DNA from: Reclinomonas americana ATCC 50394
Taxonomy: Eukaryota
Direction of reading: 5' to 3'
DNA: 42,790 bases
Assembly: GCA_048213135.1 (NCBI GenBank)
Contig: PS015136.1
Location: forward strand, 80,190-122,979
The notes beneath the pieces were generated by a model. That model was not told the DNA's origin and ran no database searches. It worked only from the letters and a program-made list of their open reading frames with translations. The translations under genes were made by a program, and so were the position numbers. The first letter of the stretch is position 1, and every line of letters starts with the position of its first letter. Shown piece after piece: positions 3,301 through 31,200 of this stretch.

Positions 3301-4156
3301 GAAACGAGAAGCAAGGGCGTCAGAGACATACGCGGAAGAAGCGAAAGACAAGGATTGGTTGAGAGAGAGAAGAATTGAAAGTTGGCAAGGCGAGGAGCCA
3401 GAGATGAGACAAGGAGGGCGACATAAACGCAACTCGCTGCCAAAATCACACACGTGCAGCGGGGTGCGACCGCGCCCATCCCGCACCGCCACCATCGCAG
3501 CACTCGCATCCACATCCCCCGCCTCTGTCAACAGCTGCTCCAGCTCCTCATGCCACCCATGCTCCGCGGCCACATGCACCGCACTGGTGCTCCTCCTCAC
3601 TACCTCTGCCTCTGCCTCCTCCTCCGCAGAGTTCCACTCACGCGACGACACCTCCAACGACACCACAGCCGCCATCTCCGCGAGCACGCGACACAATTGC
3701 AGTCGAGAAGCGCGCGGATGCAGCAACACATGCACCAGTGCACTGCTCCCGTCCGCTCGGCAGCGGACAAGTACATGCATCCAAGGTGACGATGGCGAGG
3801 AGAAATCTTCCGAACCCATTGATGATTGCAATCCACGAAATTGCTTGCACAGCTCATCCAGCAGCGGTTGACGTGCCATTACTAATAGATCGTCACCGTC
3901 AACTGCGCACGGGCCTTCCTCAGACAACCATTCACGCGGCAAACATGCGAGTTTCGGGACAGCATGTGGACGGCCGCCGAGAAGCGGTGGAGAGACACAC
4001 CAGTCATGCGATAAAGGCGGGAATGGCTTCTCGTCTGACTCGCAGTCAAGATGCAAGACAACAGCAACATTCTGAGCAGACAGCGCAGCGGACAATTAGT
4101 GTAAGCACCAAGCAGGTGAGCAGGCAGAGAGCGCGCGCGCGTGCCTCATCAATCAT
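370..4156 (-). CDS. Multi-exon ankyrin-repeat protein (3' end uncertain, probably continues toward the window start)
   Basis: Spliced exons give ankyrin-type motifs: SAVHVAAEHGWHEELEQLL, GRTPLHVCDFGSE|AVVSTLLYAGADPFAKDDEGRSAFH, GRHPLHWL, GDTPLHAVC, GCTPAMLAAQQGH, TPALLALRAGHFECL. The putative start exon MIDE (4145-4156) joins NVAVVLHLD (from 4071) through a GC-AG intron. Confidence 0.75.
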
Positions 4157-4288
4157 CGTCGTGGCTTGCACGTACGAGCACGAAGGAGGGGTGTTGCAAG
4201 CGCCGACTGAACAATGCAACAATGCCGGATGTATTTTTAACAGTGCGCAGGACACGCGCCTCGGGACGGCCACGCATTGGTTTCCGTG
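4157..4288. promoter_or_regulatory. Putative compact bidirectional promoter
   Basis: Only 132 bp separate the inferred divergent ATGs of the ankyrin gene (4156, -) and GatA (4289, +). Confidence 0.4.
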
Positions 4289-7068
4289 ATGGCCGTTGCC
4301 GCGCATGGATTGTTGCGCCTCTCTGCGACCGAGGTAATTTTGCGTTTAACACTGGCTTTCGTTCTTGTGTTTGTTTTGATTGTGTTTGTTGTTGTTTGCA
4401 GCTTTCGCATCATTTCCGGTCGACGTCGTCTGTGGTGAATGTGGTGCTTGCGGCGCATGCGGAGGCGCATCGGCATGTGCTTCCGCATGGATGTGCGGCG
4501 TATTTGAATGTGCGAGCGAGTGAATTGGTGGTGAAGGAGGCGGAGGAGGCGGCCAAGAGGATTGCGCGAGGTGAATGAGGCAAAGAGAGAGAGGAGAGGG
4601 TCTCGTTGTGTTTAGGCTTGCATTCTGCATGTTGATGAGCGATGATGGAATGCATCGTGTGTTGTTGTTGATCTTCTTCTTCTCCTCCTCCTTCTCCTCC
4701 TTCTTCTCCTCCTTCTCCTCCTTCTTCTCCNNNNNNNNNNNNNNNNNNNNNNNNNNNNNNNTCTCTCTCTCTGTAACCTTGGCTTTCTTCTTCAAGTTCT
4801 TGTTCTTCTTCTTGTTCTTCTTCTTCTCCTTCTTCTTCCTCTTCTTCTTCTTCGTCTTCTTCTTCTTCTTCTTCTTCTCCTCCTCCTCCTCCTTCTTGTT
4901 CTTCTTGTTCTTCTTCTTCTCCTTCTTCTTCCTCTTCTTCTTCTTCTTCTTCTCCTCCTCCTCCTCCTTCTTGTTCTTCTTGTTCTTCTTCTCCTTCTTC
5001 TTCCTCTTCTCCTTCTTCTTCTTCTCCTTGTTGTTGTTGTTGTTGTTGTCATTCTTCTTCTTCTTCTTCTTCTTCTTCTTCTTCTTCTTCTTCTTCTTCT
5101 TGTTCTTCTTCTTGTTCTTCTTCTTCTTCTTCTTCTTCTTCTTCTTCTTCTTCTTCTTCTTTTTCTTCTTCTTCTTCTTCTTCTTCGTCCTCTACTACTC
5201 CTTGCTTCTTATTCTTCTTCTTCTTCTTCTTCTTTATCTTCTTCTTCTCCCTCTTCTCCCTCTCCTCCTCCTCCTCCTCCTCCTCACCCCCTTCATCACC
5301 CCTTCATCACCCCCTTCATCCACCAACCAACAGGGCAACCGCTGAGCGCGCTCGACGGCGTGCCAGTGTGCATCAAGGACAACTTTTGCGTGCAGGGGCA
5401 ACCGACCAGCGCCGCCTCGCGAATCCTCTCCAGTTGCGCTCGCGCCTCGTCGGCCTCCTCCGACGCACTTGTCACTCACGAATGATGTGCGCAGAGTGGG
5501 TGGCGCCCTACACGGCCACGGCGTGCGAGAGGTTGCTGGTGGGTGGCGGCGCCGTGCTCATTGGCAACAATAATATGGATGAATTCGGCATGGGGTGTGT
5601 TCTCCTTCTGCCCCTCACTGTGCGCTCGTCAGCAACTCATCTCCTCCCCGCAGCAATGCTGGTGTGAATTCGGCCTTTGGGCCCACGCGAAATCCGCTCT
5701 CTGCCGATCTGGTGGCTGGCGGCAGCTCCTCGGGAACGGCCGCGGCTGTCGCGGCGCATACGGCGTTTATGTTGCGTGTGTGTGCTCCATCAACAAGGCT
5801 GCTGGGTGGCAAACTCACTTTTGATGTCGACGAGTAGAGGTCTGTGCAGCGACACGGGCGGCAGTGCGCGACAGCCGGCCGCCTTGTGTGGGCTCGTCGG
5901 TTTCAAACCCACGTACGGTCGCGTGAGTCGGCACGGTCTGCTGGCGTACGCCTCCTCGCTCGACTGTCCGTCGTTGATTGCGCGATCGGTGGCCGACGTG
6001 CGGGTGGCGTTTGGTGAGTCGCGCCTGCCTCACCTCCTTCCCTTCTCCTCTTCATGTCTCCTGGTGTCAGATCTCATCAAGGGCGCCGACGGCCTCGACC
6101 CCACATGCTACACTCCTGTCACGCCCAGTATTCCGCATCCGCTGCCGGCGACTGGCGGAAAACCACTCGACGGTCTCGTGGTCGGCATCCCGCTCGAGTA
6201 CAGCATCGAGGAGTTGTCGGCCGAGGTGCGCGCGGCGTGGGAGTCGGCGGCAATGCGTCTCATGAGTCTTGGCGCGACGGTTCGCCACGTGTCCCTGCCG
6301 CACACGCCGTACGCACTGGCGGCGTACTATGTGATTGTGTGCGCGGAGGTGTCGTCGAATCTGTCGCGTTTCGATGGCGTTCGATTTGGTGCGTACGGCG
6401 TTCTCGAGCAGCCGTCTCGTGCCTCTCCGTGCTCATTGGTTGTTGCAGGCTCCGCTCCCGTGATCGACGACGCCAAAGGCGACGCAGCGCCGCGCATGGA
6501 CTACACTCAATTCGCCAAGACCACGAGGTCGCAGGGCTTTGGGCCGGAAACCATCCGCCGCATTCTGGCCGGCACGGCTGTGCTCTCTGTCGAGTTGTGT
6601 TGTCTCTGATTTCCTTCGCGAGTACCGATGTCATCTCACCCTCCCCAACCCCATGGCGTGCAGTTCGTACGACGCCTTTTTCCGCCAGGCACAACGTGTG
6701 CGTCGGCTGGTGGCCGACGATTTTGGTGCCGTTTTCGCCACCGGCGATGAGCACGTAGATGTATTGCTGACGCCTGTGACACCGCGCTCCACCGTGTCTG
6801 TCGCCGATGCGGCGCGAGAAGCATCCTCGGATCCCACCCGAGGGTACGACTTTGACGTGTTCACGGTGCCTTCGAGCCTGGCGGGTGAGTGAGTGTTTTT
6901 CTGGCAAGTCCTCTTCCTGCATCGTCGTCATCTCTCTCTCGGCGATGTGCAGGATTGCCAGCGATCAGTGTGCCCACAGGAGGCACGCCAGTGGGCATGC
7001 AGCTGATTGGCCCGCGAGACAGCGATGAGTGGCTCCTGCAAGTCGCCGAGAGACTCACGTGCTCGTAA
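4289..7068 (+). CDS. QRSL1: Glutamyl-tRNA(Gln) amidotransferase subunit A (GatA/QRSL1, amidase signature family), multi-exon
   Basis: Spliced product contains LDGVPVCIKDNF, NMDEFGMG, GGSSSG, SDTGGSARQPAALCGLVGFKPTYGRVSRHGL, EVSSNLSRFDGVRFG, GFGPETIRRILAG, YDAFFRQAQRVRR, FTVPSSLAGLPAISVP and GMQLIG. The Lys-cisSer-Ser triad motifs are intact. ATG at 4289, TAA at 7066-7068. Confidence 0.95.
4671..5285. repeat. Long (TTC/CTC/TTG)n trinucleotide microsatellite in GatA intron 2
   Basis: Directly visible; lies within intron 4571-5333. Confidence 0.95.
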
Positions 7069-7118
7069 ACTCACTTTAGATTGACGGGATCTCGCTCGAA
7101 TCCAATCTATTCTTCATT

Positions 7119-10100
7119 CTATTCGTCGTTGCTCTTGTGCGACGAGGCGCGAGGTAATCGCACCGCCAGCTCGCCGAGCAAGTTGCTGACGGGTCCCGCC
7201 ACACCCTCCTGAGCGGCCACAGACGACAGCAAGTTGTGCACAATATGCATGTCCATCTGCAACTCGTCCGGTAGTGCGTGCTCGTCTCTGTCTCCTCCAC
7301 CCGCCTCGTCTACATTGTCAAAGCGATCGAGCGACATGGCCGCCCCGAGCGCCTCCAGCTCGGCATCCATTTCGGCCATGACGTCGCGCAAACTCGGTTC
7401 CTCCTTGTCCCCGGTGTCGTCTGGCGCTGCGGCTGTTTCCGCCCCCTCCTCCTCCTCTCCGTCTTCGTCGTCCTCATCCGACGGTGGGTCTTCGAAATCG
7501 CCTGCTCTCGTGGTGAGCGGGGTGAAGGAACGGAGAGAAAAGCAGAGAGAAGGTAACGCAACTCGGATCAAAGAACCCATCCCACGGTTGCTGCTCATCG
7601 CGAATGCCAACAGCGTTCTTCAGCAGCGCGAACAGCTGCTCGACGTTGAAGTCCACGGGTTGACTGTGTGCACGCACATGTTCAATGAGACGGAGACTTC
7701 AGATCGCGAGCAGCATCGCTCCACACAGACCTGTCACCGACGGCCACATGCGGCACCTCCGCACCCTCGTGGCTCGACATGGCATCCATAAAGGCGCGCA
7801 TGCCCTTGGCCACATCGGCGGCCGATGTGCCATCGGCAGCAGTGGCAGCTGCAGGAGGGGCGGCACTGTGGCCGAGTGCCGGACCGTAGCGCGACATGAG
7901 TTTGTCGAGTTCGTCAATCGACAGCTCCATNNNNNNNNNNNNNNNNNNNNGATAGAGACATAGAGAAAGAGAGAGATAGAGAGAGAGAAAGAGAATGACA
8001 GGAGAACTCACCGCAGATAGGGTTCGGCGAATTGCTGCACCGCCGACGGGTCGGCTGCAAGCAATGCATCCACCTGGTCGGCAAAGTCCAGGTCTCTGCA
8101 GAGGGGGGAGGGAAGAATGAACAGGGGGAAAGAAAGGGGAGAGAGAGTACAAGCAGTCGACTCACCGGTGACTCTCTCCAACCGCAGCCTCATCGGTGAA
8201 CTCAGTCACCACATTCTGCACAAACTCGGCGCGCGCCTGCCTCTCCAACTCGCGATACAGCCGCGAGCCCTCCAACTCGCCGCGAAAGTAGCCGAGGCGA
8301 TGGAGACGCGCCTTGTAGGTTCGCCAGCGTGATTCTGTGGCGGCATCGAACTGCGACGAGTTGTAAGGCGCGGATAAGGAGCGCAAGTGGAATGAGCTTC
8401 TCTGCTCACCTCCACAACATCCGAGTCCCCGACCGCTCGAGTGGACTTGGAGCGGCGGCTCTCCTGGTACGCCATCTCAAACGCGCATGCCTGCACACCG
8501 CCAGTCAGCAACAAAGGTTTGTGCGCCTCGCGAGCCCACTCAGTACGAACCACACGCACGCCGACATCGTAGTGCCGGTGATGTTGTGCCAGCGGGAGAT
8601 CCGGGGGCATCACGAAAGGCTTGGGCGGGTGGAACGACTGCTGTACGAGTTGTGCGAATCGACAGCGCGTGAAGCGCACTGGGTACATGATTCGGTCGCG
8701 GCTTGGAGGGAAGCGTGACATGCTGACGCAGGCCTGAACAGAGGGAAGGGAGGATGAGGGAAGGGAGGAAGAGGGAAGGGAGGAAGAGGGAAGGGAGGAA
8801 GAGGGAAGGGAGGATGAGGGAAGGGAGGATGAGGGAAGGGAGGATGAGGGAAGGGAGAGGGATGAGCTCCTTTTTTTCTGCGTACTCGCTGGCCCACCAG
8901 TAACAGCAGTAATGACAGATGGAACGGACAGAGCGGGGAAGGAGCGCGCAAAGGTGGAGGCTAGAAGGGCAAGAAGGAACGGCAGAGGACGGAAGGAGAA
9001 GAAAGGTAAGGCATGCACCAAGGTAGGCTGTGTAGAGAGCGTGGAATGAGAGTGAGAACATGAAAGGTGAGAGGCGAGAAAATGAAAAGGTGGAGCGAGA
9101 ACGCAGAGATGGCAGTGGAGTGAGGTATGCACCAAGGGAGGCAATATAGAGACCGTGCAAGGAGAGTAAGAACACAAAAGGTGAGGGGTCAGGAAACGAA
9201 ACGGGTGGAGCGAGAACCCACGCACGCCGGTAGAGGGAATGAGAGGTATGCACCAAGGGAGGCAATGTACAGCCGTGCAAGGAGAGTGAGAGAGTATGAA
9301 AGGTGAGGGGCGAGGAAACAAAAGGGTGGAGCGAGAACGCGGAGATGAGGTATGCATCAAGGCAGACAGTGTTGTCGAAGACTGTTTCCCTGTCTCATCC
9401 ACCCACCTGCAATGCCGCTGGATCCCTCGAATAGAAACACTCAATGGCCCGACTAAGCAGCCGCGGCTGCGTGTGCGCGAGGAACGCCACGTCCACCGGC
9501 ACGAAGCAATTGAATACGTGCCGATTCTCCGCCAATGCATGCCCGGGAAACCTGACCACAGCACCCACTGTCAGACCCACACACAGACGCCACCCCCTCC
9601 GCCTCCACGGCTCACTCACCCGCTCAGTTTCTCGCGGAGTAATCTCTGCACGCCGTCAGGTAATCTGGTGCGCTTCGGCAGCGTTTTGATGGCCGCATAC
9701 GCTGCCGCCGGGGTGAGCGGCATTGACGCCGGCGGAATGATGCCGATCTCGCCCGGCGACGTGGGCCCCGGCGGCAAACAGTGCAACTCGCCCGCACACA
9801 GGAACGTGCGATCGTCGGCCACCTCCGGGTCGACCCACGTCGGCAGCTCGTCGGCCGTCTCAATCAACAGGAACTGCCCGTCATTATCGCGCACGACGCA
9901 CAGCACCTCGGGCAGGCGCACCGTCACCTCGCGCAGCACATACACAATCAACCACTCGTCCAGCACATTATCGCCAAAGCGCGAGCTGCCGTAGAGATGC
10001 ACCGGCGCCGCATCGGTCTCCGCCACCAGCACCAAGCGCAACGGATCCTGGTGCCACACATACTCCTCCCCGGCCTCCTGCTGCATCTCGTCGAGCAGAC

Positions 10101-10257
10101 GCTCCACCATCGGCAGCACCACCTCGCGCAGGTAGTGCGCGGGAGTCGCCTCAGCAGCAGCTGGAGCATACAGTCGATAGTGCACCTGGTTGACATCGTT
10201 GCCGGCGGCGGCCAGCTGCGACGCGTTGATCGAGTAGCCACGCAGCAGTTCCTCCAT
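7119..10257 (-). CDS. ECD: Ecdysoneless / hSGT1-family protein, multi-exon
   Basis: Family motifs YVWHQDPLRL, GSSRFGDNVLDEWLIVYVL, DNDGQFLLIETADELPTWVDP, VRFTRCRFAQL, GYFRGELEGSRLY, MRAFMDAMSSHEGAE, VMAEMDAEL and HNLLSSVAAQEGVAGPVSNLLG. Confidence 0.92.
8741..8860. repeat. 15-bp minisatellite (GAGGGAAGGGAGGAW) in ECD intron
   Basis: About 7 tandem copies visible. Confidence 0.9.
8990..9365. repeat. Degenerate ~105-120-bp tandem repeat in ECD intron
   Basis: Recurring ATGCACCAAGG...GAGAGT...GGTGGAGCGAGAAC blocks near 9014, 9127, 9248 and 9352. Confidence 0.8.
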
Positions 10258-11196
10258 TTCTCCTTCACCGACGCGACAGCAGCAACACAGAGAGCAGGTA
10301 GTGCAGGGCGTGCACGGCGAGGAGTCGGGAGTAGCGAAAGGCGTACTTGGTCGCCAGCACTAGATCCAGGAAGCCGCCCGAGGAGAGCACGAGGTCGCGG
10401 GTTTGCAAGGAGTCGGTGTCGCCTGGGGGGAAAGTGGAAGGTGAGAGGGGAAAGGGAGAGAAGGGGAAAGGAGGGAGGGAGAGGGCAAGGGGGAAGGTTT
10501 AGAGGGCGAGAGAAGCGAGAGCCTCTCTCTTTCTTTCTCTCTCTCTCTCTCTTACCTTCCTCCAACAAGGCGTGCTCGGAGACTCGTCGCCAGGCGCGCT
10601 TCTGAGCTGCAGCAAAGCGTCGGAAGCGATGTGGATCGTAAAAGGCCACTGATTGCAAAGCCTACAGAGAACATGTGAGAGAGTGAGAGAGAAGAGAGAG
10701 AGAGAGGGAGAGAGAGAGGAGAGAGAGGGAAGAAGAAGAAGAAGAAGACAGAGGGAGAGAGGAGAGAGAGAGAGAGAAAGAGCAAGGGTCCAGGAAGAGA
10801 GAGAAAATGCATGAGTAAACGTCGTCTTTCCTCTCCAAAAAAAAGCACGCGCATTCTCTCACGCCATGCACCTGATGAATCGGGTGCACAAGGCTCATCC
10901 ACAAGCCACACTGGCGCTCTTCTGTGAGGGGGAAAGCGTCAAAATGCAAGTGTCGTCCTCGTCCCACAACACTCTGACGCAATTGCAACAAACAACGAAG
11001 CGCAGAAGGTAAAAGAGCACACACAAAGAGAGAGAGGCAGAGTGAGAGAGAGAGAAGATGCGCGGAGAAGATTGCAATTTCAGTGTGGAAGAAGAAGAAG
11101 AAGAACATGCAGAGAGAGCTGCAGACTCTCACAGAACCTGCAATCTTGGTGCCACATTGACTGGGCACTCACTCACTCTCTCACTTTCTCACTCAG

Positions 11197-13364
11197 ATGA
11201 GTCGACGCAAATGGGATGTTCCTGGTGACGCGCCTCCTCCACCTCCGCCTCCTCCACCTGACGACGACTACCCCACATCTTCATCGTACCACCACTCGCA
11301 CTCGCACTCCTCAGCAGCAGCCGAGGCATTGCGTCGCGCGCAAGAGGTCGCTGCGCAGCTCAAGGCGCGGCATGCGGGCGCCTATGATGGACAGCCTCCG
11401 CCTCCGCCTCCTGATGATGACTATGGTCAGGAGAAGGCTGGTGGAGATGATGATGGAGACGGGGAGATCACCGACCGAGAGATTGAGATCAATGAGAGTC
11501 GGCATCGTGGGTTTCTGACGCGTGGGCAGACGCAGAAGGAGGTGAGGAGCAGGCGAAGGGAGGGTGGGGAAGGGATGGGTGAATGGGGAAGGGCGAGAAG
11601 GCGCGAGAATGCACTCTAAAAGAGAAGAAAGAAGAAGAATAAGAACAAGAAGAACAGAGCGAGAGAGAGACGGCGCGTTATGATGGACAGAGTCCTCCTC
11701 CTCCTCCTCCTCCTCCTCTTCCTCCTCCTCCTCCCGATGGAGAAGGGTGGTGGAGGCGGTGATGATGCCGATGAAGACATGAAGATCGATGAGTGGGGCT
11801 TGTGACACAAAGGCAGACGTAGCAGGAAGTGTGAATGCGGGAAAGAGATTGCAGAATGAAGCAACAGCACACGCTCCGTCTGAAGCATGCAGCGACTGAT
11901 ATGTAGGAGCATAACTCATTGTCATCGCTCCCTTCATCCGCATTCTTCCCCTTCCTTGCTCACCTCCCCTTCCCCTCTTCGCAGATCGAGGCCGACTCTG
12001 GCGCCGCGGTCATCACTCGCGGAATCTACCAGGACCCGAATGGACCGCCGACCGGCGAGCGACCGCTCTACTTGAAGGTCACTGGCAAGCGATCGCAGGT
12101 CGACAAGGCTGTGGCGCTCATCGAGAACGTGATGCAATTCGGCCGTCTGCACCTGTACAACGGGCCTGGTCAGCGCAACTTTGGCTTCTCGGAAAAGGTG
12201 ATGGTCGGCATCGACTCGAAGGACGATCGCTTTCCGGTCGTGGGCAAGATTGTCGGTCCCAAGGGCGCCTTCCTCAAGCACATTCAGAACGAGAGCGGCG
12301 CCAAGGTGTTCCTGAAGGGCCGCGGCTCCAACTTCCAGGAGACGTTTGACGAGCCCATGTATGTGGACATTCAGGCGCCCACCGATGTGTCGCTGGCGAC
12401 GGCCAAGAAGCTGACCGAGAATCTGCTGGCCACGGTCCGAAAGCAGTACGAGGAGCATGTGTGAGTCCGCGTGGGCGAGCGATTAGAAGAGTGATTATCC
12501 GCTCTCTTATTCTTAGCGCCACCTTTTACAGGAACTACCGCAGTGGAGGTCGTCGCGGTGGCCCCGGTGGCCCCGGTGGTTCCGGAACCAGCTCCAATGC
12601 CACCCCGCTCGCAGGAGCCGTGCCTCCGCCACCCCCACCGCCACCGCCGGTTCCCGGATACGGCGGCTATCCCGGTTATCCGCCAGCGTTGCGTCTTTGT
12701 TTGTTCCCACTCCTGCTCGGGCGAATCATCGCATCTCATTTTTCGCACGTCGCAGTTATCCGGGCTACTATCCGGGCTATGCGCCGCCGCCACCACCGCC
12801 GCCAGCGATGGCACCGGGAATGGCGCCGGGAGAGGTGGCTCCGGGCGATACGCCGCCAGGGCTCGGGCCTGCGGTGCCGGCGGCAGCACCGGCGGCAGTG
12901 CCAGGGTACCCAGCGTACTATCCGGGTTACGAGCAGTATTATGCGCAGTGCGTTTGTGGGGAAGGAGGGAAAGGAGAGGGAGGGTGGGAGAGATGTAGTC
13001 TCTTTGCTGCTGTTGCATCTTGTCACTCTGTGGCACAGTGCATGTGCGGTGTGTGTTGGTGGTCGGAGAAAGATGTAGAAGGAGGGTTCGAGAGATATGT
13101 GTCTCTAAGTGCTTGTGGAAAGAGAGAGGAAGTCAGCGGGAGAGGGAGGGATTATGGGTGAGAGTGAGAGAGAGAGGGGAGAAATGGTGTAGGGGGACAG
13201 CGACAAGAGAGATCTACCTGTCGCCATTGACCCTGTGTATGTGCTTGTGTCTCTGACTGCCTGTGAATAGAGAGGCGAGAGAGTGAGAGGGAGGGAGACA
13301 AGGTTTAGAAGGAGGGGTACGAGAGATGTCAGCAGTTTCGTGCGCTGCGCTTTTGTCGTTCCTC

Positions 13365-13446
<82 letters not shown>

Positions 13447-15619
13447 GTGTGTGTGTGTGNNNNNNNNNNNNNNNNNNNNTTGTGTGCTTGTGTGCTTGTG
13501 TCTCTTAGATCGAGAGAAAGGAGTTCAGTCGGAGAGTGGTGGTATGTGTGAGAGAGTGAAAGAGAGAGATAGGTACGAGAGATATCAACCGTTTCTTTCG
13601 ATGTGCTGTTGTCGTTGGTCCTCTGTGTTCGTTTTGTAGATGAGGAGGGCTGAGGGGAGAAGTGAGGCAAGGGGGATGTTGACCTTCTTGCTTTTTTGCT
13701 TTCATTATTGATCTTGTTGTGTGTGCGTGCACGGGAGTTGACCTTCTCCGTCTTGCTTTCCTCATTGATCGCTTTGTATTCGCCCACTCTGTGTACTTGT
13801 GCCTGTGCGTGCTTCGGGACACATACATACGCAGCGTGATCTTCCTCTTCTCATCCCCACGCTGCCCCTCCCGCTCACTTCTCCTCTCTGTTCTCTTTTT
13901 GCATCATCACCCTCCTCATTCCCTCCACCCTCCCCCTGTTCCGTCCTCTCCCTCTTCACCTTCTGTATTCCGGTTCCGTCATCCCCTTCCGTCTCCCTCC
14001 TGATAAGAGGCGTCGACCAAGCGTTGGAGCTCCCCCTTTCTCTTTCGCTGTCCGTCTTCTCTATCCGTACCTCTGTCTCTATTCTCACTCCGATTCCCAC
14101 CACCAGATACGCCGCCTACGCCGGATACCCGGGAGCAAGCGCCGCGGCTCCAGCACAGCAGGTAAATGGCGGTGATTGGCCAGCGTTAGTTGCACTCACT
14201 CGCGTTTGGGAAGGGGGGTGTGTTCACTGACTCTCCAGTTTGTATCAATGGGATCCAGTGGTCTTCCGTCTTGTTTCTCTTTCTGTGTCGGCGTTGTTGA
14301 GTTGACTCACCTGCTAGTGTGCGCATAGAGAAGATAGCGGGAAGCGGGAGTGTTGTTACTCATGAAGCAGCTGTTTTTTGTTTCTGTTTAATTGTTGATA
14401 CTCACGCCTGAGCTCTGTGTTTGCGTTGGTGGTATTGTGCCTTGTTCTCGTGTTGGTTGTCACTCACTGCGCCCTCTTATTCACTGGGTGTGCACAGATA
14501 GTGAGAGGAGTTAATAAGGACTGGTGTCTGCTGATGCTCTTTCCTATTTTTCTGACTCACCTAAAATTTGCACATGAGAGACAGCGCGGATTGGCGATTG
14601 TAGCGAGCTCTATATTTGTTGTTGATTGGTACTCACTGTACTGCCGTGTGTGTGTTTGCATTTGCGCGACAGGCATTGGTTTCGAAGTTGCACTGTGTGT
14701 TCCTCATTTGCTCACTCCTGTGTTTCCGCACCTTGATTGTCACGAGAGAGATACATTCCCCTGTTGATACTTACCCTTGCCTGCGCGTCGCTCTGAGTGT
14801 GACCTATCTTGTTATTACTCACCTCCGGCGTGTGTTTGTTAGTGCAAGCGAGTGAGGCAGTGCGGTTGTATTGAGACTTGTTTTGTGTGCTCTGTTGGAA
14901 CTCACCTCCGTATTCGTCGAGCGCATACATTCTTCGCGGGTGTGCTTGGTTCACTCACTGGTTCAACGCGCTTGCTGCTGCGGCCGTTGTCTTTTCGTCT
15001 GTTTATGCAGTCCTCTGCTCCGCCTGGTCTCGAAGACGCGCCTGGCCACAACGACCAGCCGCTGCAGTTCGCACCGGGTGCACAGCCAGAGGTGATGTGA
15101 CTCAGCGATGCAAGTCCAAGTATGTGCACGCCACTCACAGCTGCAATCCGTGTGCATGCAGAAGTCGGCGTCCAAGCGTAGCATTGACCAGATCTCGGAG
15201 GCGGGACAGCCAATGGGCCCGAGTCGTCCCACCGCCGAGGAGATGCAGCTGTCGTATGGTCGAGGTTGGGGTTTCGGACGCGATCTTTGGCTTCATATTC
15301 CTTCTTTCCTGCTAGCTGACCGCGACACACAGGAGCGGATGCTGACGCGCCGGCGTACAAGCGTGCGCGCGTCGACCATCACTCTGCGTCGCACCAGCAC
15401 CAGCAGCACCAGTCGTCGAATCCGCTCGCCAGTCTGCGCAGCTACTCGGGCGAGGAAGGCGACGATGGGGCGAATGGAGTTGCGTTTTTCTTGGGGGTTG
15501 CCAGGCGTTTGCGTATGTTGTCGTGAACTCACGAGTGTCGTCATTGGGGAAAGCAGCAGCAGCAGCAGCAGCAGGCGTCGTCTGGCAGCGGACTGCCCTT
15601 CTGGGCTCAGCGGCCGTGA
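11197..15619 (+). CDS. KHDC4: KH-domain RNA-binding/splicing factor KHDC4 (BLOM7/KIAA0907, plant RIK-like), multi-exon
   Basis: Motifs RRKWD, [78 protein letters not shown] and AKKLTENLLATVR; Pro/Tyr/Gly-rich tail; C-terminal PFW motif (GLPFWAQRP*, TGA 15617-15619). Confidence 0.88.
11672..11834 (+). pseudogene. Decayed duplicate of the 3' half of KHDC4 exon 1, inside intron 1
   Basis: Matches 11377-11545: TATGATGGACAG, CCT run, GGAGAAGGxTGGTGGAG, AGATCxATGAG, GGCAGACGxAGxAGGA-GTG. The exon's ACG CAG has become ACG TAG. Confidence 0.75.
13367..13459. repeat. (TG)n microsatellite in a KHDC4 intron
   Basis: Directly visible; runs into an N gap. Confidence 0.95.
14194..14958 (+). promoter_or_regulatory. 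Intronic array of ACTCAC motifs (putative splicing-regulatory element)
   Basis: Nine exact ACTCAC at 14194, 14305, 14400, 14462, 14555, 14631, 14817, 14900 and 14953, plus variants, in intron 14162-15010. Confidence 0.55.
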
Positions 15620-18900: not shown

Positions 18901-21900
18901 GCAACAGTTGTCGTCCACGGTTGACAATGCGCCAATTGGAACGCCGACTCCAAGGGGTGGCGAGTACGTCTGAAGTGACAAACTCACCGCCGTTGGTTGC
19001 ACGTTTGCTACCGGTACCGTGTGAAATTAAACATGTCGTCAGCAATTTTGTAGCGGCTAGCCATACGCGAGTTGCTTCTCTCCGTAAACATACCTTCACT
19101 AAATGTGAATGTTGCAGACGCAATACCGCCCGCACCGTCGCTTACAGTAACAGTGACTTGTAAATTGTTGCCAGTGAGGTTCGCCGCCACAGTGCGAAGC
19201 TTCAAGTCCGCTCCTAGTGAAAAGAGGGAAGCATTCGCGCCACCCGTAATTGAATACGTCAGAGTCTGACCAATGTTTGCGTCCGTGGCACTGACAGTTC
19301 CGAGAACGGTATTCATGACACATGGTACGCGATATACGTTGTCAGCAAGCCCCGCGACAGCGTTGGTGAATGTGAGGTTCGCTGGCGTGGCATTGGCTAT
19401 TATGCGTGAGCACGATGAGTGAACACGCCAATAAGGCAGGTACTGTTGTTTTGCTCATTGCAGCAAACCTTCGGTGACTGTGAAGGATTTCTCGGTGAAG
19501 AGTCCACCGGAGTCCGTGCTGCGGACCACCATGGACAGCGTGCCAGACTGACTATTGATCTTAATGTTCAGCGACGAACCAACAATGGTGACAGAGTTGC
19601 TCGGCGAGCTAGATCGGATTGTGTAGACAAACGAGTCACTGGCGTTTGCGTCCGTGGTAGACAGCAGTCCGATCACAGTATTTGCAGTCACGGGCGGCAA
19701 ATACGTCGTTGCCGAGAGCGCAATGTCTGTTGGCGCTACATTGACTGCGCAGGCAGCTTGAGACTTAGTCGCCAAGATAGATTCAGTGCACAGAACCACG
19801 CGCAACAGATGTCCGTACCCTCTGTCAGCATGAATGTAGTCAATGCGCCCGAGCCCTGATTGTTGCCAACCTGCACAGTCACCGACCGCGTGGGCCCCGT
19901 GACGCCTGCAGACGATCGAACTACAAGCTTGTTGCCCTGCATGGCAAAGAGGGCTCCGTCGAATCCAGACGACACTCTGAAATACGCCGTTGCAGGGTCG
20001 CATGCTGACAGGGGAATACTGACTGGAGTTGCGATACTCGGTGGAAATGACCAGCGCACTTGGACGAAGTCAACGCCCGTTTGCTCCTGTACACATTCAC
20101 AACACGATGCGAGTACGAGTGGATACAATGTAAATGCGTGACTCGAGCGCAGAATCACACAGTCGACCGACCTTGTGCCGAACTTGGAGGAGAATAACTT
20201 GTCCAGCGGTGAAGCTGAATGAGCTGGACTGTTGCGAGGGGTACTTGCTAAAGTTGCCAACAGTTGTGGAGGAATTCGGCGGGACACCGGCAACTTGCAC
20301 CAAGTCATTCGAGTCGGATGTTGTGCTCAAGAATAAAGCAGTCTCCTCGTCCCCAGCCACCCAGAACTGTTGAAGAGCAAGTGAACTCCCAATGCAGGCT
20401 TATCTTGTCAGGAAAAAGACGCAACAACGTATGTGTTCGTCGCCGGAATTGTAACGTATGCTGTCAACTGGGAAGCATAGTTGTCTGGGCACGATTGTGA
20501 TTGAGTTTTCGAGCTCACAGCACTTCAGGTGACGGTGTACGTACCTCCATCATTCGTCAGGAATTCGAACGGATTAGAAGACGAGAGAAGAGCTAGATTG
20601 CTTGTTGACGTACTGAGCGGCACAGACGCAAAGTCGGCACTTGCAATGTTCGGACCGTAAAGAGTTTCCCATCTTTCACGCAGCACACCCTTCGCAGTGG
20701 TGGGCGAACGAAGAGAGTTACCACTGTATGCATAAGAGACCTGGCAGGTCATTCATCGATGTCAGTTCAGCAGGTACAGATCATCTACATGAAAATTTCC
20801 TTCCATGTTTCAAACACACCGTGCCTATTAGTGACGGCGCGATGGCGCCAGGAATAAACGTCGAACTGCTGAGAGCCACGCCGCTGAATAGATTAACCTA
20901 CAGTTTTCCAAGTGCGTGTCAGCGACGCGCCTCCAATTGAATGAGCGCATGTAGCGCTGCGCAGTGCTGAGTATTTGTCGTGCCACTCACCGACTGGGAG
21001 ACGCTGAAAGCCAATCCGTTGGAATCTGTTACTTCGATAGTGATGGGGAATGTCCTCGCCGAAGGAGTGGCGGTTGCAATCAGTTGGTTTCCACTGACAA
21101 TGATCGGCTGGCCAGAGTCTGATAACAATTTATACGTGTACGACTCGCAGCAGTTGTCATCGCGAGCCTGGATTTCCGAGATGACGAATGGATACGATGA
21201 TGCTGGGACTGGAAAGTCGCGATTCAGCAGGCGAACATTCCAGCCCTCAACAGGAGCTGCGAACAAGCACATCGAAACTCTGAGTAGGAAATCGACAAAA
21301 TCGACGCAAGCAGACGTCGACACTATAACCGAGCTCACTTTCTGAAAATGTGTACGACACTGAAGTGAGTGTGCCACTGAGATCGTCACCCTCGACAGTC
21401 ACCTCGAGGGTGGGATTCATCGTCATAGGGTCACCTCGTAATCCACCAAGCTGATTCGCTTGAAGCTTGTTACCCGCAACAAGGAACTTGGCCTGCAGGA
21501 ATCGCACTGTTGAACAGCCAAGTTCCCTAGTGCAACACGGGCAGAAGAGCACACACCGCATGCATTCCACCAGTAATTTTCCACAGAACGACGCCGACCA
21601 GACACTGTGAAGCTGGAATAGTGGTAATAGCGTTGCTGCCGTACTGCCATCCCAAGCTGTCGTTTGGAGAGAGACATTAATTTCAACAGTGAACGATCAG
21701 AGTCAACACAATGACGGGAGTTCACTTGGTTTCTTTTCGAGCCTCGGTTAAAGCAAGACCCGAGCGAGAGAGACAAAAACTTCCAATAGTGAAGATAATG
21801 CAAAAGCAGATAACGTAGAAGCCAAAACGACCGTAGTCGCCGTGACCTGTATTGCCAATGGCCGCACGTAGCACACCACCATCGAGGNNNNNNNNNNNNN

Positions 21901-24900: not shown

Positions 24901-25940
24901 ACGCCGTGGTAGGGACTGGGTTCCACCTGCTGCAACATCAACAAAGCATCGCATTCGCAAACTCCGCACTGTAACGTAACGAAGGGTTTCCATTGGCCAG
25001 CGCAGACACTACACTGACAACTTTGACAAGATCGGCTGCGTCGCCGGTGAGACTGATGTACAGGTCGCACGAGTCGGCACAAGTGATGTAGAACTGAGAA
25101 GAGATGTTGTGAGTAGGCAGCTGGCGCAGCGATGTGAGTACATGCATAAAGTGGGCAACGCACAGTGTACGAGTTGTCAGTGGGTATGGTGACGAATGTG
25201 GTGAGGCGAGTCGAAGAGTTACCTGCATGTACAGCGCACAAGTACGCACGCATGCGTAAAACCGCATGTGACTGTAAGTACCAGAACAGAGACGCCGAGC
25301 GCTACGACATGTTCACGTGCAATGTGACGCACTAGCTGTGGCCGAGTATGCAAATGACGTCGTCAATGGGAAGCAAGACGTCGCCGCCGTCGAAAAGCTG
25401 TTCAAGTGCGGTCGAAATTAGGGCTAAGTGGTGGATGCTCACATTTCGAAATGTATATGCCGACCCTATGCATGTGTGCCCCAGAGCGTAACTCAGCATT
25501 TGACACAGACGACCCAGGTTGACCAGTCCAGCGTTCCGCCAGGACTCCAGAGGTGGTAGCCGACACACTTGATCGACAACCCGTTACAGTTCGCGACAGC
25601 TGCGCAAGCGCTCTCGTGAGTCTGGGGTGCCATACATTCGACTCAAGGCTTGAGCGCACAGCCAGTCCGCAACAGTGGTGAGCGTGGACCGCACTGCAGA
25701 GTACGGCATGAACGACAATGCGGTTGTCGCTCCTGTTGCAAGTTCAATGAAATGATCAGAACATGCATATGCACAAGCAGCACGTACGCGTACGCGTGCT
25801 ACTGTTGCCCATTAAGCATCGCAAGTTAACGCACCTGCGCCTCTTCCAGTCAGCACGACTATGCATGTGCACATCGCGAAGGCCAGCGCAAGACATGTAC
25901 AAAGAGCGTCTGCAGCACGACTGCGCATGCGCATGCGCAT
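15984..25940 (-). CDS. Large type-I membrane adhesin-like protein: signal peptide, ~8 cadherin-like repeats (two interrupted by PA14 domains), 3 IPT/TIG-like domains, TM helix, cytoplasmic tail
   Basis: Signal-like exon (ATG ~25940, ...LCTCLALAFAMCTCIVVLTG). Repeats follow NxAPxxIxLS...IGxLSTxDxN...FTYxI...FxxxGxxL...VxxTDxGG, mostly one per exon. PA14 motifs GVLRERW, DNYASQLTAYVTIPATNTYVFWVAGDEETALFLST and FSKYPSQQS...LQVRHKEQTGVDFVQVRW. IPT-like FSPT...LTVTGTGL occurs three times. TM GTVVGSVVLIAAILFLTWYCLVM is followed by RRRR. The termini are less certain than the domains. Confidence 0.8.
21684..21719 (+). repeat. Element left-end repeat, copy 1 (36 bp, identical to 23782-23817)
   Basis: CAACAGTGAACGATCAGAGTCAACACAATGACGGGA occurs twice. 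Confidence 0.95.
23336..23435 (+). repeat. Element right-end repeat, copy 1 (100 bp, identical to 24554-24653)
   Basis: CTCAACAGGAAAGAAAGTG...TTCCAACAGTGGAAATCTGGATT occurs twice. Confidence 0.95.
24011..24442 (-). pseudogene. 143-aa ORF: acidic N-terminal segment fused to a tyrosine-recombinase C-terminal remnant
   Basis: YTTPSTCGGATAANALGVEATQLNSVAGWKSDDTHRLYIR resembles the YR motif (H-S-x-R)-xGGATAA...GV...GxWKSD...YIR. The HxxR is degenerate and the upstream catalytic Arg region is missing. Confidence 0.6.
24407..24576. repeat. Perfect 85-bp tandem duplication inside the element
   Basis: 24407-24491 equals 24492-24576; it duplicates the ORF start and part of the right-end repeat. Confidence 0.95.
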
Positions 25941-26401: not shown

Positions 26402-26770
26402 ATGGGCTTCCTCCGCTCCTTCTTTGCCGCCATGCTCTCCCTCCTCGTGGCCGCACTGGTCACCTCTGCCGTCGAATCCGTCAACACCACCGTGCTGTTC
26501 CCGATGCCCGAGGAAGTCGCCCGCGTCATGACCGAGCTGCGCACACAACACACCGATCTGGCCATGGACAAGCTGCGCGAGTGGATCGCCACACTGCCGG
26601 CACTGGCCCTGTGCATTGTGTTGGTGGGGCATGCAGCTGGTGCCAGTGCAGCCGGCCTCACTCTGCGGTGGGTGGCGCCCGGCAGCTCCGCCTACTTTGG
26701 ACTGTTGCCGGTGCTGGTGTTGGTCATTGGAGGTTGGTGTGCATGCAGGAATCTTGATCCTCTTTGGTGA
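26402..26770 (+). CDS. Small hypothetical membrane/secreted protein
   Basis: ATG-initiated ORF with a signal-like N-terminus (MGFLRSFFAAMLSLLVAALVTSA), two further hydrophobic segments and GC3-rich codons; no recognisable family; 3' end uncertain. Confidence 0.45.
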   Translation: MGFLRSFFAAMLSLLVAALVTSAVESVNTTVLFPMPEEVARVMTELRTQHTDLAMDKLREWIATLPALALCIVLVGHAAGASAAGLTLRWVAPGSSAYFGLLPVLVLVIGGWCACRNLDPLW

Positions 26771-26859
26771 TCCGCGCTCATCTCCACGCAACAGCGGTGA
26801 CCATGATGCGCATGCTGCCGCATCCGTGGTGGTTCTTGGCCATTGATTTCCCCCTGTAT

Positions 26860-28115
26860 CCACTCTGCGTGTTTGGCTTGATGAGATCACGCGCTGCACG
26901 ACCATTGCCACCACCACCACCTCCCCGCGCAGACAAGACAGAGTGACGTCTCTCTCTCTCTCATTGTAGCGTCTTCTGCGACCACTCAACATGCATTCCT
27001 GCAGACGTGAGAGGTTCTTTCTTGACCACTATCCCTTGTGGATTGACTTTGCGCTCTTTGGCGTGATGGGAGCACGCGCAAGGCCGCCACCTCCACCACC
27101 TCCTCGCGCAGACGAGACAGATTGAGTTGTCTTCCTCTTGCATTACTCCTCCCGTATGATTCGGGCTCCTCCGTCGTCGTCGTCTTCTTCGTCGTCAGCT
27201 CTTCTTCTGCTTGCTGTAGTTGTTGTTCTTCTTCCTCTCCCTCACTCTTCTCTTTGGCCACGGTCGCGCGCAATGCCGCCACCACCACTACCACCTCGAG
27301 CAGACAAGACAGACTGACTTCCCTAGCATCCGACGTCTTCTGCATCCGCTCAACATGCATTCCTGCAGACGTGAGAGTTGTTCCTTTCTCTGCTCTCTTG
27401 GTCACTATCCCTTGTGGATTAACTTTGCGCTCTTTGGCGTCATGGGAGCACGCGCAAGGCCGCCACCTCCGTCTCCTCGCGCAGACAAGTCAGATTGACT
27501 TCCCTTGCTTCCCTCGTCTTCTGCATCCGCTCAACATGCATTCCTGCAGACGCGAGAGGTTCTTTCTTGATCTTCTCTCTACTTTCTTGGCCACTATCCC
27601 TGGTGGATTGACTTTCCGCTCTTTGGCGTGATGCGATCACTTGCAAGGCCGCCACCACCTCTGCCTCCTCGCGCAGACAAGATAGATTGACTTTCCACTC
27701 TGTTTCGTGCTTCCGTCGTCTTCTGTCTGCATCCACAGCCACTTATACCTCATCCTCTCTTGCTTCGTTTGCTCCTCTCCTCTCTCATGACCACCATCCT
27801 TGACATTGCACTGTTTCCACTCTGCGTGTTTGGCGTGATGTTATCGCGCGCTCCACGGCCACCACCACCTCGAGCAGACAAGACAGACTGACTTCCCTAG
27901 CATCCGACGTCTTCTGCATCCGCTCAACATGCATGCAGACGTGAGAGGTTCTTTCTTGTTCCTTTCTCTGCTCTCTTGGTCACTATCCCTTGTGGATTGA
28001 CTTTGCGCTCTTTGGCGTGATGGGAGCACGCGCAAGGCCGCCACCACCTCCGTCTACTCTCGCAGAAAAAAACAGATTGGCTTCCCTTGCTTCCCTCGTC
28101 TTCTGCATCCACTCT
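26860..28115. repeat. Degenerate tandem array, ~7 units of ~180-200 bp
   Basis: Marker GCAGACAAGACAGA-TGAC (with variants) near 26928, 27108, 27300, 27481, 27672, 27874 and 28062; CTCAACATGCAT at 26985, 27349, 27530 and 27923. Confidence 0.85.
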
Positions 28116-28217
28116 GTTCTCCTTCGTCCTCCTCCATCTCATTCTCCTCTCGCAATGTATTATTTAAACATTCTCCACTTCCTTCTCCTTTCTTTCTCCC
28201 TTCCCCCCTCTCCTCTC

Positions 28218-31200
28218 TCATCTCCTCATGGGCAGGGGAGAGAGAATAGACGGCAGCTGCTCCATCGTCTCCTTCTCCACATCCCGTCGGGGGTCGAGGA
28301 ACTCGTTCAGCGACGGCAGAGAAATGCTGGGCTGCGAGTGCATGAAAAGGCAAATTAGCAACGGCACTCTCCTTCTCCCTCCCTTTTCAGCAGCACTCAC
28401 CATGAGGAGCAGCACGGCTGGCAATCCGAAACGCGCAAACGAGAGACCAATCAGCCACTCGTTGCGGGCGGCGTGGTTCTCAAACATAATGTCGACGGTG
28501 CGAGAGTCGGTGATCACGCTGAGGCACAAATCCTCGCCTGCGCGCGCGCACAACTGCGATTGAGTGACACAGAACGACAGCACAGGCGCTTTCACAATTC
28601 GACACGCAACTCTTGTCAAGGTCCTGACGGATGCGGCGATCGCCCTTCAGCGTCGGCGTCTGCACACCGGCGGCCACGTGCCAGATGGAGGCCAGCGCAA
28701 TGGAGCTGTTGAGGGACTTGGCTGAGGAGCCCCACTGCAGCTGCTTGCCGTCGTCGGACAAGCGGAAGAATCGGCGGTGCGGCTTGGAGTGGCGACTGAA
28801 AATGTACTTGGTGAGGACGGCGCCCTGCTTCACCGACTGCACCGCGCGACTCGCTGCGGCCTCGGCATGCGCGGCGCGGCGGCTCTCCAGCACCTGGCTG
28901 AGTTGAGTGCGACGCATCTCCGCCTGTTCCATGAAGAGTGAGTGAGCATGACAAGAAAACTACAACGAAAACAACAAGTGCAGACTCACCCTGAACAGCG
29001 CCGGCGCACTGGCCATCGTGCCCGAGGCGACCACGTCACCGGTGCGCGCCGAAAGGGGTCCGCCAACCGGACCAGTGCCAGCCAGCGCCACGCCGGAGGC
29101 GGCAGCGGCGCCTGCGCGCATCTCACGCTCCACCGTCGGCACGTGCTCCTCGTGCACGACCACACGCGAGGCCAGCGGCTTGGCCATTTGCGCGTAGCCC
29201 TCGTGTTCCTTGGTGATCATCACATTGTCGTTGGTGGACTGCGAGTCGTCGGCCGTGTTGTGGCTGGCACACTGGCCGGGAGTGATCCACAGCATCAGCT
29301 CGCCCTCCATAGAACCCAGTGGCGAAGCGCCGGTCGCCGTCGGCGCGTCCTTCTTGGCATCGCCGTGGTCGCCACCAAAGTCAGTGGCGTCGTGCTCCTC
29401 CTGCTGCTGCGCAGGAGCCTGCGAGAGGCCAATGGAGCAGGCCTCCTCCTCCTGTTCCCTCGACGATTCCACCACCACATCTGACTTGTCGGTCGCGGTG
29501 GCGACCGGCGTCTCAACGGCGCTGTGCTGCGACGTCGGCAGAGACTCGGCGACCAGATCGTCGCCGGTGGATGCAGTCGCGTCTTCGCCCTCCATAGCCA
29601 TTGCCTGCTCCTCCTCCTCCTCCTCCTCCTCCTCGTCACCGCCCTCTGAGCGTGAGCCCTCCGGATCGAGCTCGTCGTGCGTGTTGTTGTCGGTGGCGGG
29701 GGCGGGGGCGGGGGCGGCTGGTGGAGCCTCGTCGACCTCGACAACCGGTGCGACTGCCTGTGCCGCAGTGGCTGCTGCCGCTGCTGCTGCTGCTGCCGCC
29801 GCCGCAGCCGCCTTGGCCTGTTGCGCGGCAAGGTTCTTGGGAATGGGCAGAGGCTGCGCATGTTTAGCAGGATGAGAACGGGAGAAACATGAAAACATAA
29901 ACTTTGTGCAGGCCACTGTCTCACCTTGCCCACTCGCTCGTCGTCCGTGGCCAGCAGTTCGAGACCAAAGCTGCCCTCGCTCACCTCGCCCTCGTTGTTC
30001 TCCAGGCTGCGCGGAATGTCGAGAGTGCTTCCAGCCGCCGGGTGATTGCTGAGCTCGGCGGCCAGGATCTCCTGCTGCTGCGCCACGCGGCGCACGTCAC
30101 GAAACACACTCGTCAGTGCCACGGAAATGGGCACTGGCGTGTTTCGGCCGGCGTGCAGCACCGGCTGTACTTCTGGCGACGGACCCGTGACAATGAACGA
30201 GGCGAGCAGGAGGCGACATTCGGCCAGCGCCTGCTTGTCGTTCTGGCTCAGCATGCCAATGAGGCGGGCGTTTGACTGCGCCGCCAGCACGGCCTCGTCG
30301 CACGAGCTGTCGTGGCTGTCGGAGCTGGCCATGAGGCCGCGAACTTGCACTGTGGCCGGCGGGAATTCGTACACCTGCAAAGGGGAGAAGCGGTGAGGCA
30401 GTGAAGAGAGGGGGCTTACGCAGCACAAACAAACACACACCGTTGTCACGCCACGACCGGCGCTGGAGCTGCTCGTGTCGTCGGCGCGCTGGCTCGTCGC
30501 CTTTTGCTGGGCGACCTCGTTGACGAATGTGTACTTGCGCAGGCGGTGGCCTTGCACGCGCTCGTTGAAGTTGCGCTTGGGGGAGGACTAAAGAGGGGAA
30601 GGGGCGGTGAGGGGAAGGGGGAAAAGGCGGTGAGGAAAAGGGGGAAGGAGGGAAATTTCAAGGAGGGGAAGGAGGGAAAGGAGGGAGAAGGANNNNNNNN
30701 NNNNNNNNNNNNNNNNNNNNNNNNNNNNNNNNNNNNNNNNNNNNNNNNNNNNNNNNNNNNNNNNNNNNNNNNNNNNNNNNNNNNNNNNNNNNNNNNNNNN
30801 NNNNNNNNNNNNNNNNNNNNNNNNNNNNNNNNNNNNNNNNNNNNNNNNNNNNNNNNNNNNNNNNNNNNNNNNNNNNNNNNNNNNNNNNNNNNNNNNNNNN
30901 NNNNNNNNNNNNNNNNNNNNNNNNNNNNNNNNNNNNNNNNNNNNNNNNNNNNNNNNNNNNNNNNNNNNNNNNNNNNNNNNNNNNNNNNNNNNNNNNNNNN
31001 NNNNNNNNNNNNNNNNNNNNNNNNNNNNNNNNNNNNNNNNNNNNNNNNNNNNNNNNNNNNNNNNNNNNNNNNNNNNNNNNNNNNNNNNNNNNNNNNNNNN
31101 NNNNNNNNNNNNNNNNNNNNNNNNNNNNNNNNNNNNNNNNNNNNNNNNNNNNNNNNNNNNNNNNNNNNNNNNNNNNNNNNNNNNNNNNNNNNNNNNNNNN

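Follow-up and report, generated by a model that had tools for sequence, protein, structure and literature searches.

Do the nuclear genes of Reclinomonas americana ATCC 50394 make use of a second kind of 5' splice site, in which the expected G stands at position +6 instead of +5? The question is raised by a 42,790-nt stretch of draft nuclear contig PS015136.1 (hereafter the window; ~55% G+C, 13 runs of N), whose genes are intron-rich and carry many GT-AG introns of ~60-70 nt. An earlier note on this DNA had picked out nine GTTRYG hexamers as donors, and all nine lie where it placed them, at 5433, 5771, 6594, 12688 and 15479 on the plus strand and at 3433, 20425, 24980 and 28610 on the minus strand. 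Together with a tenth one, at 7562 on the minus strand, which was absent from that list, they lead us to conclude that GTTRYG donors probably form a real and frequent class whose signal is displaced by one base. The motifs, their fit to reading frame and homology and the position statistics can be read directly from the DNA, and from them we infer that splicing takes place at these sites.

All ten proposed introns start with GT and end with AG, and nine of them are 51-78 nt long, the other short introns of the GatA amidase gene of the window being 57-68 nt long. A CTCAC or CTCAT motif is found 16-29 nt from the 3' end in six of the ten and CTCAA or TTCAC in two more, while no branch-like motif lies within range in the introns of 24980 and 3433. 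Intron removal restores the frame and the match to homologues, as judged by homology for 5433, 5771 and 6594 and by frame or domain structure for 7562 and 3433; the other five sites are consistent with splicing without being decisive. A mobile, introner-like family was also considered and rejected. Indeed, when the nine short introns are aligned, the only invariant columns are at the donor and the AG, with a mean column identity of 39%; past the donor, the branch motif and the AG they have no sequence in common, contrary to what a mobile family would show.

The homology evidence comes from GatA, in which three of the nine introns have a GTTRYG donor (5433, 5771 and 6594). Genes were placed by translation, Pfam and homologues, and the window's own proteins are absent from the protein collection searched; the best full-coverage match to GatA has 50% identity, and two shorter partial matches reach up to 65% over 73% of the query. 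A hidden Markov model was made from 101 of the 120 homologues listed (470-515 residues), which had been fetched with one exon as query, and 143 isoforms were scored against it, covering, at the nine introns, each frame-open combination of a GT or GC donor with an AG acceptor up to 45 nt to either side. The working gene model is the top isoform at eight of these introns, the exception being intron 7, located inside a variable insertion. At 5433, 5771 and 6594 the GTTRYG donors rank first, with margins of 5.8, 4.4-4.9 and 3.1 bits, respectively. Margins of 3-6 bits are meaningful, not overwhelming. Furthermore, the three junctions align without gaps to eight homologues in the conserved blocks ASRILSKWVAPYTA, AAAVAAHTAFIGLCSDTGGS and GTAVLSVDSYDAFF.

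Taken one by one, the three junctions differ in the alternatives that they face. The isoform with 5433 scores 503.9 bits against 498.1 for the next best, the runners-up having GC donors; no other in-phase GT is present, and the junction falls without gaps in the block ...AASRILSKWVAPYTA. For 5771, the combination with the TAG at 5837 reaches 503.9 bits, to be compared with 499.5 for a GC donor at 5774, 499.3 for 5771 with the acceptor at 5834, and 499.0 for the ordinary-looking GTGTGT at 5776 with the GAG at 5839. When 5771 is joined to the stronger-looking TGCAG at 5849, the score falls to 491.6 bits (-12.3) and the amidase signature loses four residues, so the acceptor of 5771 must be the TAG at 5837; the junction then lies inside the signature ...AAAVAAHTAFIGLCSDTGGS, with a spacing identical to that of the eight homologues. 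At 6594, 503.9 bits are obtained against 500.8 for GTGTTG at 6597, which gains one residue, and LSVDSYDAFF stands opposite LSxGYYDAYY without a gap. The case for these three sites as donors, argued from homology, is strong. A codon-based predictor misplaced two of the three junctions (5782 for 5771 and 6597 for 6594). Gene finders based on codon usage and dynamic programming were imprecise at the nucleotide level, with an excess of in-phase alternatives, and were used for locating genes only.

Outside GatA, reading frame and domain structure take the place of homology. In the SGT1/ecdysoneless-like gene, the coding frame switches between ...QPWDGFFDP and DFEDPPSDEDDE, with a Pfam SGT1 match on both sides of a pyrimidine-rich segment of 61 nt, and among the GTs in reach only the GTTGCGT at 7562 can be joined to the local AGs by an intron whose length is 1 mod 3; the frame change requires this donor, for which the support is good. 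The three homologues found for this gene (best identity, 40%) do not suffice to test a junction or to place the lineage. Support is likewise good for a donor at 3433 in the ankyrin-repeat gene, on account of repeat spacing: the exon after the acceptor CATCGCAG opens with AVVSTLLYAGADPFAKDDEGR, a clear ankyrin helix and loop that requires a phase-2 donor, and 3433 is the sole nearby phase-2 GT that preserves the length of the ankyrin repeat.

Two further sites are probable donors. Splicing at 12688 would connect ...GYGGYPGYPPA to YPGYYPGYAPPPP in the low-complexity tail of the KH gene, and this site, for which the basis is the frame, is the sole in-phase GT for the single CGCAG acceptor. Splicing at 28610 would yield ...RIRQDLDKSEDLCLSV; GTGTCG at 28605 with the first CAG is likewise in frame, the PH-domain loop then gaining six residues, no longer homologues of the PH exon at 28612-28896 were found among 716 candidates, and the exon downstream of the intron has no Pfam match in either splice version. 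As for the last three sites, 15479 is possibly the donor of a terminal intron, in a gene without homologue whose frame does not require splicing and which, unspliced, runs into a stop 17 codons on. The site at 24980 is also a possible donor, being the sole in-phase GT for its acceptor, in a weak gene model with no Pfam match and no CTCAY-like motif. The cadherin-like gene needs an intron, for which 20425 is one candidate donor and GTTGTT at 20428, equally in phase with a difference of one residue, is another. In all, support is good or strong for five sites, of which 7562 is new, and two are probable; among the nine originally put forward, homology upholds 5433, 5771 and 6594, repeat spacing upholds 3433, and 12688 and 28610 keep a probable status.

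What sets these donors apart was sought by comparison with a table of 31 ordinary donors of the window, curated from frame, homology and repeat structure. The ordinary profile is AG/GTRNGT (the slash marks the exon-intron boundary), with G at -1 in 30/31, A at -2 in 16/31, G at +5 in 25/31 and T at +6 in 23/31. The ten GTTRYG donors never have G at -1, as the earlier note had remarked: A is found at 3433, 5433, 6594, 15479 and 28610, T at 5771 and 20425, and C at 12688 and 24980, so that with 7562 the counts are A 6, C 2, T 2 and G 0. The contrast with the ordinary donors is sharp (Fisher p = 1e-8, and 3e-6 for the six best sites). On the intron side, T at +3 and G at +6 occur in all ten, G at +4, C at +5 and T at +7 in nine each, and G at +5 in none. 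When the ordinary profile is moved by one base, the -1 position of the GTTRYG donors resembles the ordinary -2 (A in 6/10 vs 16/31, p = 0.73; for G, p = 0.31), in line with the earlier suggestion that A/G, read one base downstream, mimics the exonic AG. Likewise, +6G (10/10) compares with the ordinary +5G (25/31) and +7T (9/10) with the ordinary +6T (23/31). Since all flank positions other than +5 match the ordinary profile moved by one base, a displaced register is favoured over a bulged U. Two donors of the mitochondrial carrier gene, ttag/GTTCGTCT (42140, plus strand) and ggag/GTTTGTCG (42614, plus strand), have T at +3 together with -1G, +5G and +6T, so that the ordinary register, too, accepts T at +3. 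For a third intron of this gene, the donor may be either ctg/GTTCGCAC at 41712 or GTCTCT at 41730.

The position frequencies of the ordinary donors give a probability of 2.2e-4 per donor for GTTRYG, and finding three among the nine introns of GatA then has a probability of ~9e-10. When the 41 donors are pooled, 0.78 GTTRYG are expected under independence and 10 are observed (P = 4e-9). The class makes up 10/41 of the incomplete curated table, or 6/37 when the well-supported sites only are counted, and the earlier rough figure of a tenth is not confirmed by such a table. Furthermore, seven of the nine GTTGCGT heptamers on both strands of the window are at proposed donors, compared with one or two of the 11 copies of GTTGTGT. 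A signature combining branch motif and acceptor follows 9/75 GTTRYG and 507/4613 background GT sites (p = 0.44), and 4/9 GTTGCGT (p = 0.012), in a test that is low in power, since GTGAGT itself, with 6/55, is not above the background of 0.11.

With regard to the two GTTGCGT copies that are not at proposed donors, the one at 39975 on the plus strand lies in unannotated sequence with CTACAG ~44 nt downstream and could belong to an intron of an untranslated region; the one at 26792 on the minus strand is antisense to a gene and followed by purine-rich sequence. The word GTGCGT is over-represented in the window, with 44 copies vs 27.8 +/- 5.4 after shuffling (none of 100 shuffles reaches 44), and occurs as a curated donor once, at 6389.

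Several observations weigh against a displaced donor class, or at least against its simplest form. As a word, GTTRYG is unremarkable, with 77 copies in the window vs 66.2 +/- 7.7 after shuffling (10 of 100 shuffles reach 77) and an even split of 27 sense and 27 antisense copies in the gene regions, so that the question becomes whether particular copies are donors. Neither frame nor homology fixes the sites at 15479, 20425 and 24980, three of the ten, and two more are of the probable grade. The 31 ordinary donors were picked by eye, unblinded, with ambiguous introns omitted. In addition, the position that departs from the moved profile does so clearly: C at +5 is found in 9/10 vs 7/31 for C at the ordinary +4 (p = 3e-4), and A at +5 in 0/10 vs 15/31 for A at the ordinary +4 (p = 0.007). 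Though GTGAG is the commonest ordinary donor (12/31), none of the six copies of GTTGAGT is on the sense strand of the gene regions; a scan for GTTNNGT found no version with a purine at +5 in sense orientation within the gene regions, GTTRYG itself requiring a pyrimidine there. The class is therefore more restricted than a one-base displacement of the ordinary donors would make it, and a dedicated reader fits it better than a slipping standard U1. The description of these sites as an ordinary donor with one extra T is too simple on the same counts. Its premise that GTGCG, GTACG and GTGTG are locally common finds no support in the curated table, in which together they account for 4/31 ordinary donors, with GTGCGT for 1/31.

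Predicted pairing points in the same direction. When positions -4 to +10 of the sites were folded as duplexes with the standard U1 5' end AUACUUACCUG (PMC4856993), the mean energy was -1.38 kcal/mol for the ten GTTRYG sites vs -8.05 kcal/mol for the 31 ordinary donors. Only 2/10 sites have the shifted register as their minimum-energy fold, and all registers are weak with standard U1, the helix being broken into pieces of two base pairs by mismatches at U1 C8 and position 5. Of the proposal that a shifted register is in routine use, the displaced flanks thus stand, while nearest-neighbour folding has normal U1 pairing almost nowhere in any register. Such weak pairing makes a variant U1 a live option.

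The reading that we prefer is that these are genuine GT-AG introns of the major type whose 5' splice site belongs to a second kind, of consensus (G)A/GTTGCGT. The usual signal, -2A and -1G on the exon side and +5G and +6T on the intron side, would sit one base downstream, as -1A, +1G ... +6G and +7T, and the 5' end of U1 would contact the site with an offset of one base. The sole available GT, one base upstream of where the shifted register points, would still be the place of cleavage. With standard-U1 pairing this weak, much of the recognition would fall to the short introns (~60-70 nt) and their strong CTCAY branch sites, in the manner of intron definition. That standard U1 itself reads these donors, out of register, is a choice that we make tentatively, with chances that we put slightly under even.

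The strict conservation of the donors may also be accounted for by a different reader, namely a variant U1 or U1-like small nuclear RNA (snRNA) whose 5' end would be complementary to AGUUGCGU, perhaps accompanied by a corresponding alteration of U6. Positions +3 to +7 are evenly and highly conserved (10, 9, 9, 10 and 9 of 10), more tightly than the ordinary GTRNGT, and this tight GCGT core leaves real room for a dedicated reader of this kind. Moreover, the preference for G at +4 and C at +5 is a poor one for standard U1, which would be expected to favour GUUAAGU, and both the near-zero predicted pairing and the lack of GTTGAGT donors would follow; human U1 genes with altered 5' ends exist, according to PMC3561869. 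On the other hand, three substitutions would be needed in the most conserved part of U1, and ten sites are few for a consensus, so that we regard a variant U1 as unlikely, if worth keeping in view. To its most far-reaching form, in which the major spliceosome would have two donor codes, AG/GTRNGT and (G)A/GTTGCGT, the latter read via a variant U1 (perhaps U6) complementary to AGUUGCGU, we give a rather small chance. The standard forms of these RNAs are ACUUACCU for the U1 5' end and ACAGAGA for the U6 box, and a scan of the window with Rfam at gathering thresholds returned no match to U1, U6 or any other family. A more prosaic view is that most of the junctions are misplaced, the models having been fitted to the motif, and that the true donors are nearby GTs or the segments are not introns at all. 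In-phase alternatives do exist at 5771 (5776), 6594 (6597), 20425 (20428) and 28610 (28605), and a similar in-phase GTTGCG at 19806 on the minus strand is probably not a donor, since GTACGG at 19818 fits the phase-1 'E G/' arrangement seen in the repeats next to it; the lack of overall enrichment of the hexamer and the weak signature test (p = 0.44 for GTTRYG) agree with this view. It is nonetheless distinctly unlikely, as each of the three GatA junctions scores best with GTTRYG in the homology test, no other GT is in phase at 5433 or 7562, exon ends account for seven of the nine GTTGCGT heptamers, and the contrast at -1 (0/10 vs 30/31) is hard to obtain from chance picks.

The remaining explanations keep a standard reader or dispense with a new class. 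If standard U1 kept its ordinary register and left one U (+2 or +3) unpaired as a bulge, GT-T-GCGT would be GTGCGT plus one U, and the run of U would permit the bulge to migrate; predicted human sites of this bulge +2/+3 register are listed in PMC4856993 (Table 3). Such a bulge would keep +1G opposite U1 C8 and leave -1 facing U1 C9, so that G should be usual at -1, where it was seen in 0/10; the absence of -1G argues against this register, folding did not give the structure for any of the ten sites, and we consider it improbable. An extra T introduced into GT-GCGT donors by sequencing or assembly is conceivable in a draft contig with 13 N gaps, where TT could be a homopolymer miscall. An identical error at an identical position of ten donors is implausible, the donors minus that T would keep A, C or T at -1, unlike 30/31 of the ordinary ones, and GTGCGT is itself rare among these, all of which makes such an error highly improbable. 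As for the minor spliceosome, U12-type introns would explain why a minority of introns has a donor motif that is distinct and highly conserved; their consensus is /RTATCCTT at the donor and TCCTTAAC at the branch site. The donors here resemble GTTGCGT and go with the CTCAY branch motif that neighbouring introns have as well, and the chance of a U12-type origin is practically negligible.

Among human donors, shifted-register sites are a small part of the non-canonical U1 registers. In 2009, Roca and Krainer are said to have found them A-rich at +4/+5 (GUUAAGU/GUCAAGU type), well paired with U1, and rare. The shifted register is established in human cells, where the model site of Tan et al. 2016 is ACA/GUCAAGUAU, with -1A and +6G (PMC4856993). 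According to the same source, all experimentally validated non-canonical U1 registers amount to ~1.5% of 201,541 human donors; for the bulge +2/+3 register, Table 3 gives 68 predicted sites among these donors, or 54 after curation. The class described here is like the human shifted-register sites, as these are presented there, in having GT at +1/+2, no +5G, +6G, +7U and -1A, A/G in place of the exonic AG, and cleavage at GU rather than at the point given by the U1 register. It is unlike them in having GC at +4/+5, very weak predicted pairing with standard U1, and 6-10 of 37-41 donors. With the bulge +2/+3 register, as outlined by Roca et al. 2012, it shares the aspect of an ordinary donor with an extra U after GU, but that register keeps the -1G:C9 pair, whereas -1G is found in 0/10 sites of the window. 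The human variant U1 genes described in PMC3561869 and PMC10870369 offer another parallel, since a variant U1 would likewise provide a second donor specificity in the major spliceosome; the role of such RNAs in human splicing is still debated. Finally, the tandem donor of STAT3 exon 21, as reported in PMC11162779, resembles the present sites in that cleavage need not track the position of U1 and that U6 pairing can be displaced, although what is described there is one human exon bearing two GUs at a distance of 3 nt, and not a class of donors found across a genome.

Among the titles and abstract openings listed for the literature on shifted-register splice sites and on GUUGCG splicing, none reports a lineage with such donors. 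A eukaryote in which at least a tenth of the donors are displaced would show how loose the link between U1 binding and cleavage site can be in nature, and would provide a natural system for studying what sets the cleavage position, which may be U6, U5 or Prp8 rather than U1. Such donors would systematically mislead gene finders trained on +5G. A variant U1, if responsible, would define a new intron class; with two donor codes, this would be a third class beside the U2-type and U12-type ones, comprising at least a tenth of the introns. The coordinates of the genes and of the ten proposed introns are collected in Table 1.

Table 1. Genes and proposed GTTRYG introns of the window (exon letters in lower case, slash at the exon-intron boundary; branch-like motifs are located by their distance from the intron 3' end)
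Feature	Position	Strand	Splice-site sequence	Length (nt)	Branch-like motif or remark
Ankyrin-repeat gene	~700-4100	-
Intron of the ankyrin-repeat gene	2508..3433	-	donor gcga/GTTGCGTTT; acceptor CATCGCAG	926	includes a 340-N gap
GatA amidase gene, mitochondrial-type	4289-7069	+			9 introns
GatA intron 3	5433..5494	+	donor tcca/GTTGCGCTC	62	CTCAC, 20 nt
GatA intron 5	5771..5837	+	donor ttat/GTTGCGTGT; acceptor GAGTAG	67	CTCAC, 24 nt
GatA intron 8	6594..6663	+	donor tcga/GTTGTGTTG	70	CTCAC, 29 nt
SGT1/ecdysoneless-like gene	~7120-10450	-			PF07093, E = 1e-42
Intron of the SGT1/ecdysoneless-like gene	7502..7562	-	donor ccga/GTTGCGTTA	61	CTCAC, 16 nt
KHDC4/BBP-like KH gene	from 11985	+
Intron of the KHDC4-like KH gene, low-complexity tail	12688..12755	+	donor cagc/GTTGCGTCT	68	CTCAT, 21 nt
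Candidate terminal intron	15479..15556	+	donor tgga/GTTGCGTTT	78	CTCAC, 29 nt
Cadherin-like repeat gene	~16300-21900	-
Intron of the cadherin-like gene	20367..20425	-	donor cgtt/GTTGCGTCT	59	TTCAC, 19 nt
Candidate intron	24930..24980	-	donor cttc/GTTACGTTA	51
PH_12-domain gene	~28290-30600	-
Intron of the PH_12-domain gene	28538..28610	-	donor aaga/GTTGCGTGT	73	CTCAA, 27 nt
YrhK-like membrane protein gene	~33280-34400	-
Mitochondrial carrier gene	from 41640	+

Other donors of the window deserve mention. In the cadherin-like gene, caag/GCACGTAT at 17147 on the minus strand is probably the donor of a GC-AG intron; it alone preserves the phase-1 'x G/' pattern of the neighbouring introns at domain boundaries, with ...LLVQ joined to EVIQSTTGFSPTS. 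Two GTTGTG sites on the minus strand are each in phase with an ordinary-looking neighbour, and either member of the pair may be the donor: gaaa/GTTGTGTCA at 18010 with ctcg/GTGAAAGT at 18016 (6 nt), and ccat/GTTGTGAGC at 1403 with tgtt/GTGAGCGA at 1400 (3 nt).

A few introns exceed the others tenfold in length, at 4571-5333 on the plus strand and at 2508-3433 and ~8740-9400 on the minus strand. They are filled with pyrimidine-rich microsatellites, such as (CTT)n, (CT)n and 12-nt units resembling CCTCCCTTCCCT, and are interrupted by assembly gaps. A direct duplication of ~85 nt is found at ~24420-24600 on the minus strand, immediately upstream of an exon beginning near 24433. Finally, several copies of a ~70-nt unit ending in ...CATCACGCCAAAGAGCGCAAAGTCAATCCACAAGGGATAGTG occur at ~27000-28100 on the minus strand, between the PH gene and a membrane-protein gene located at 26 kb.

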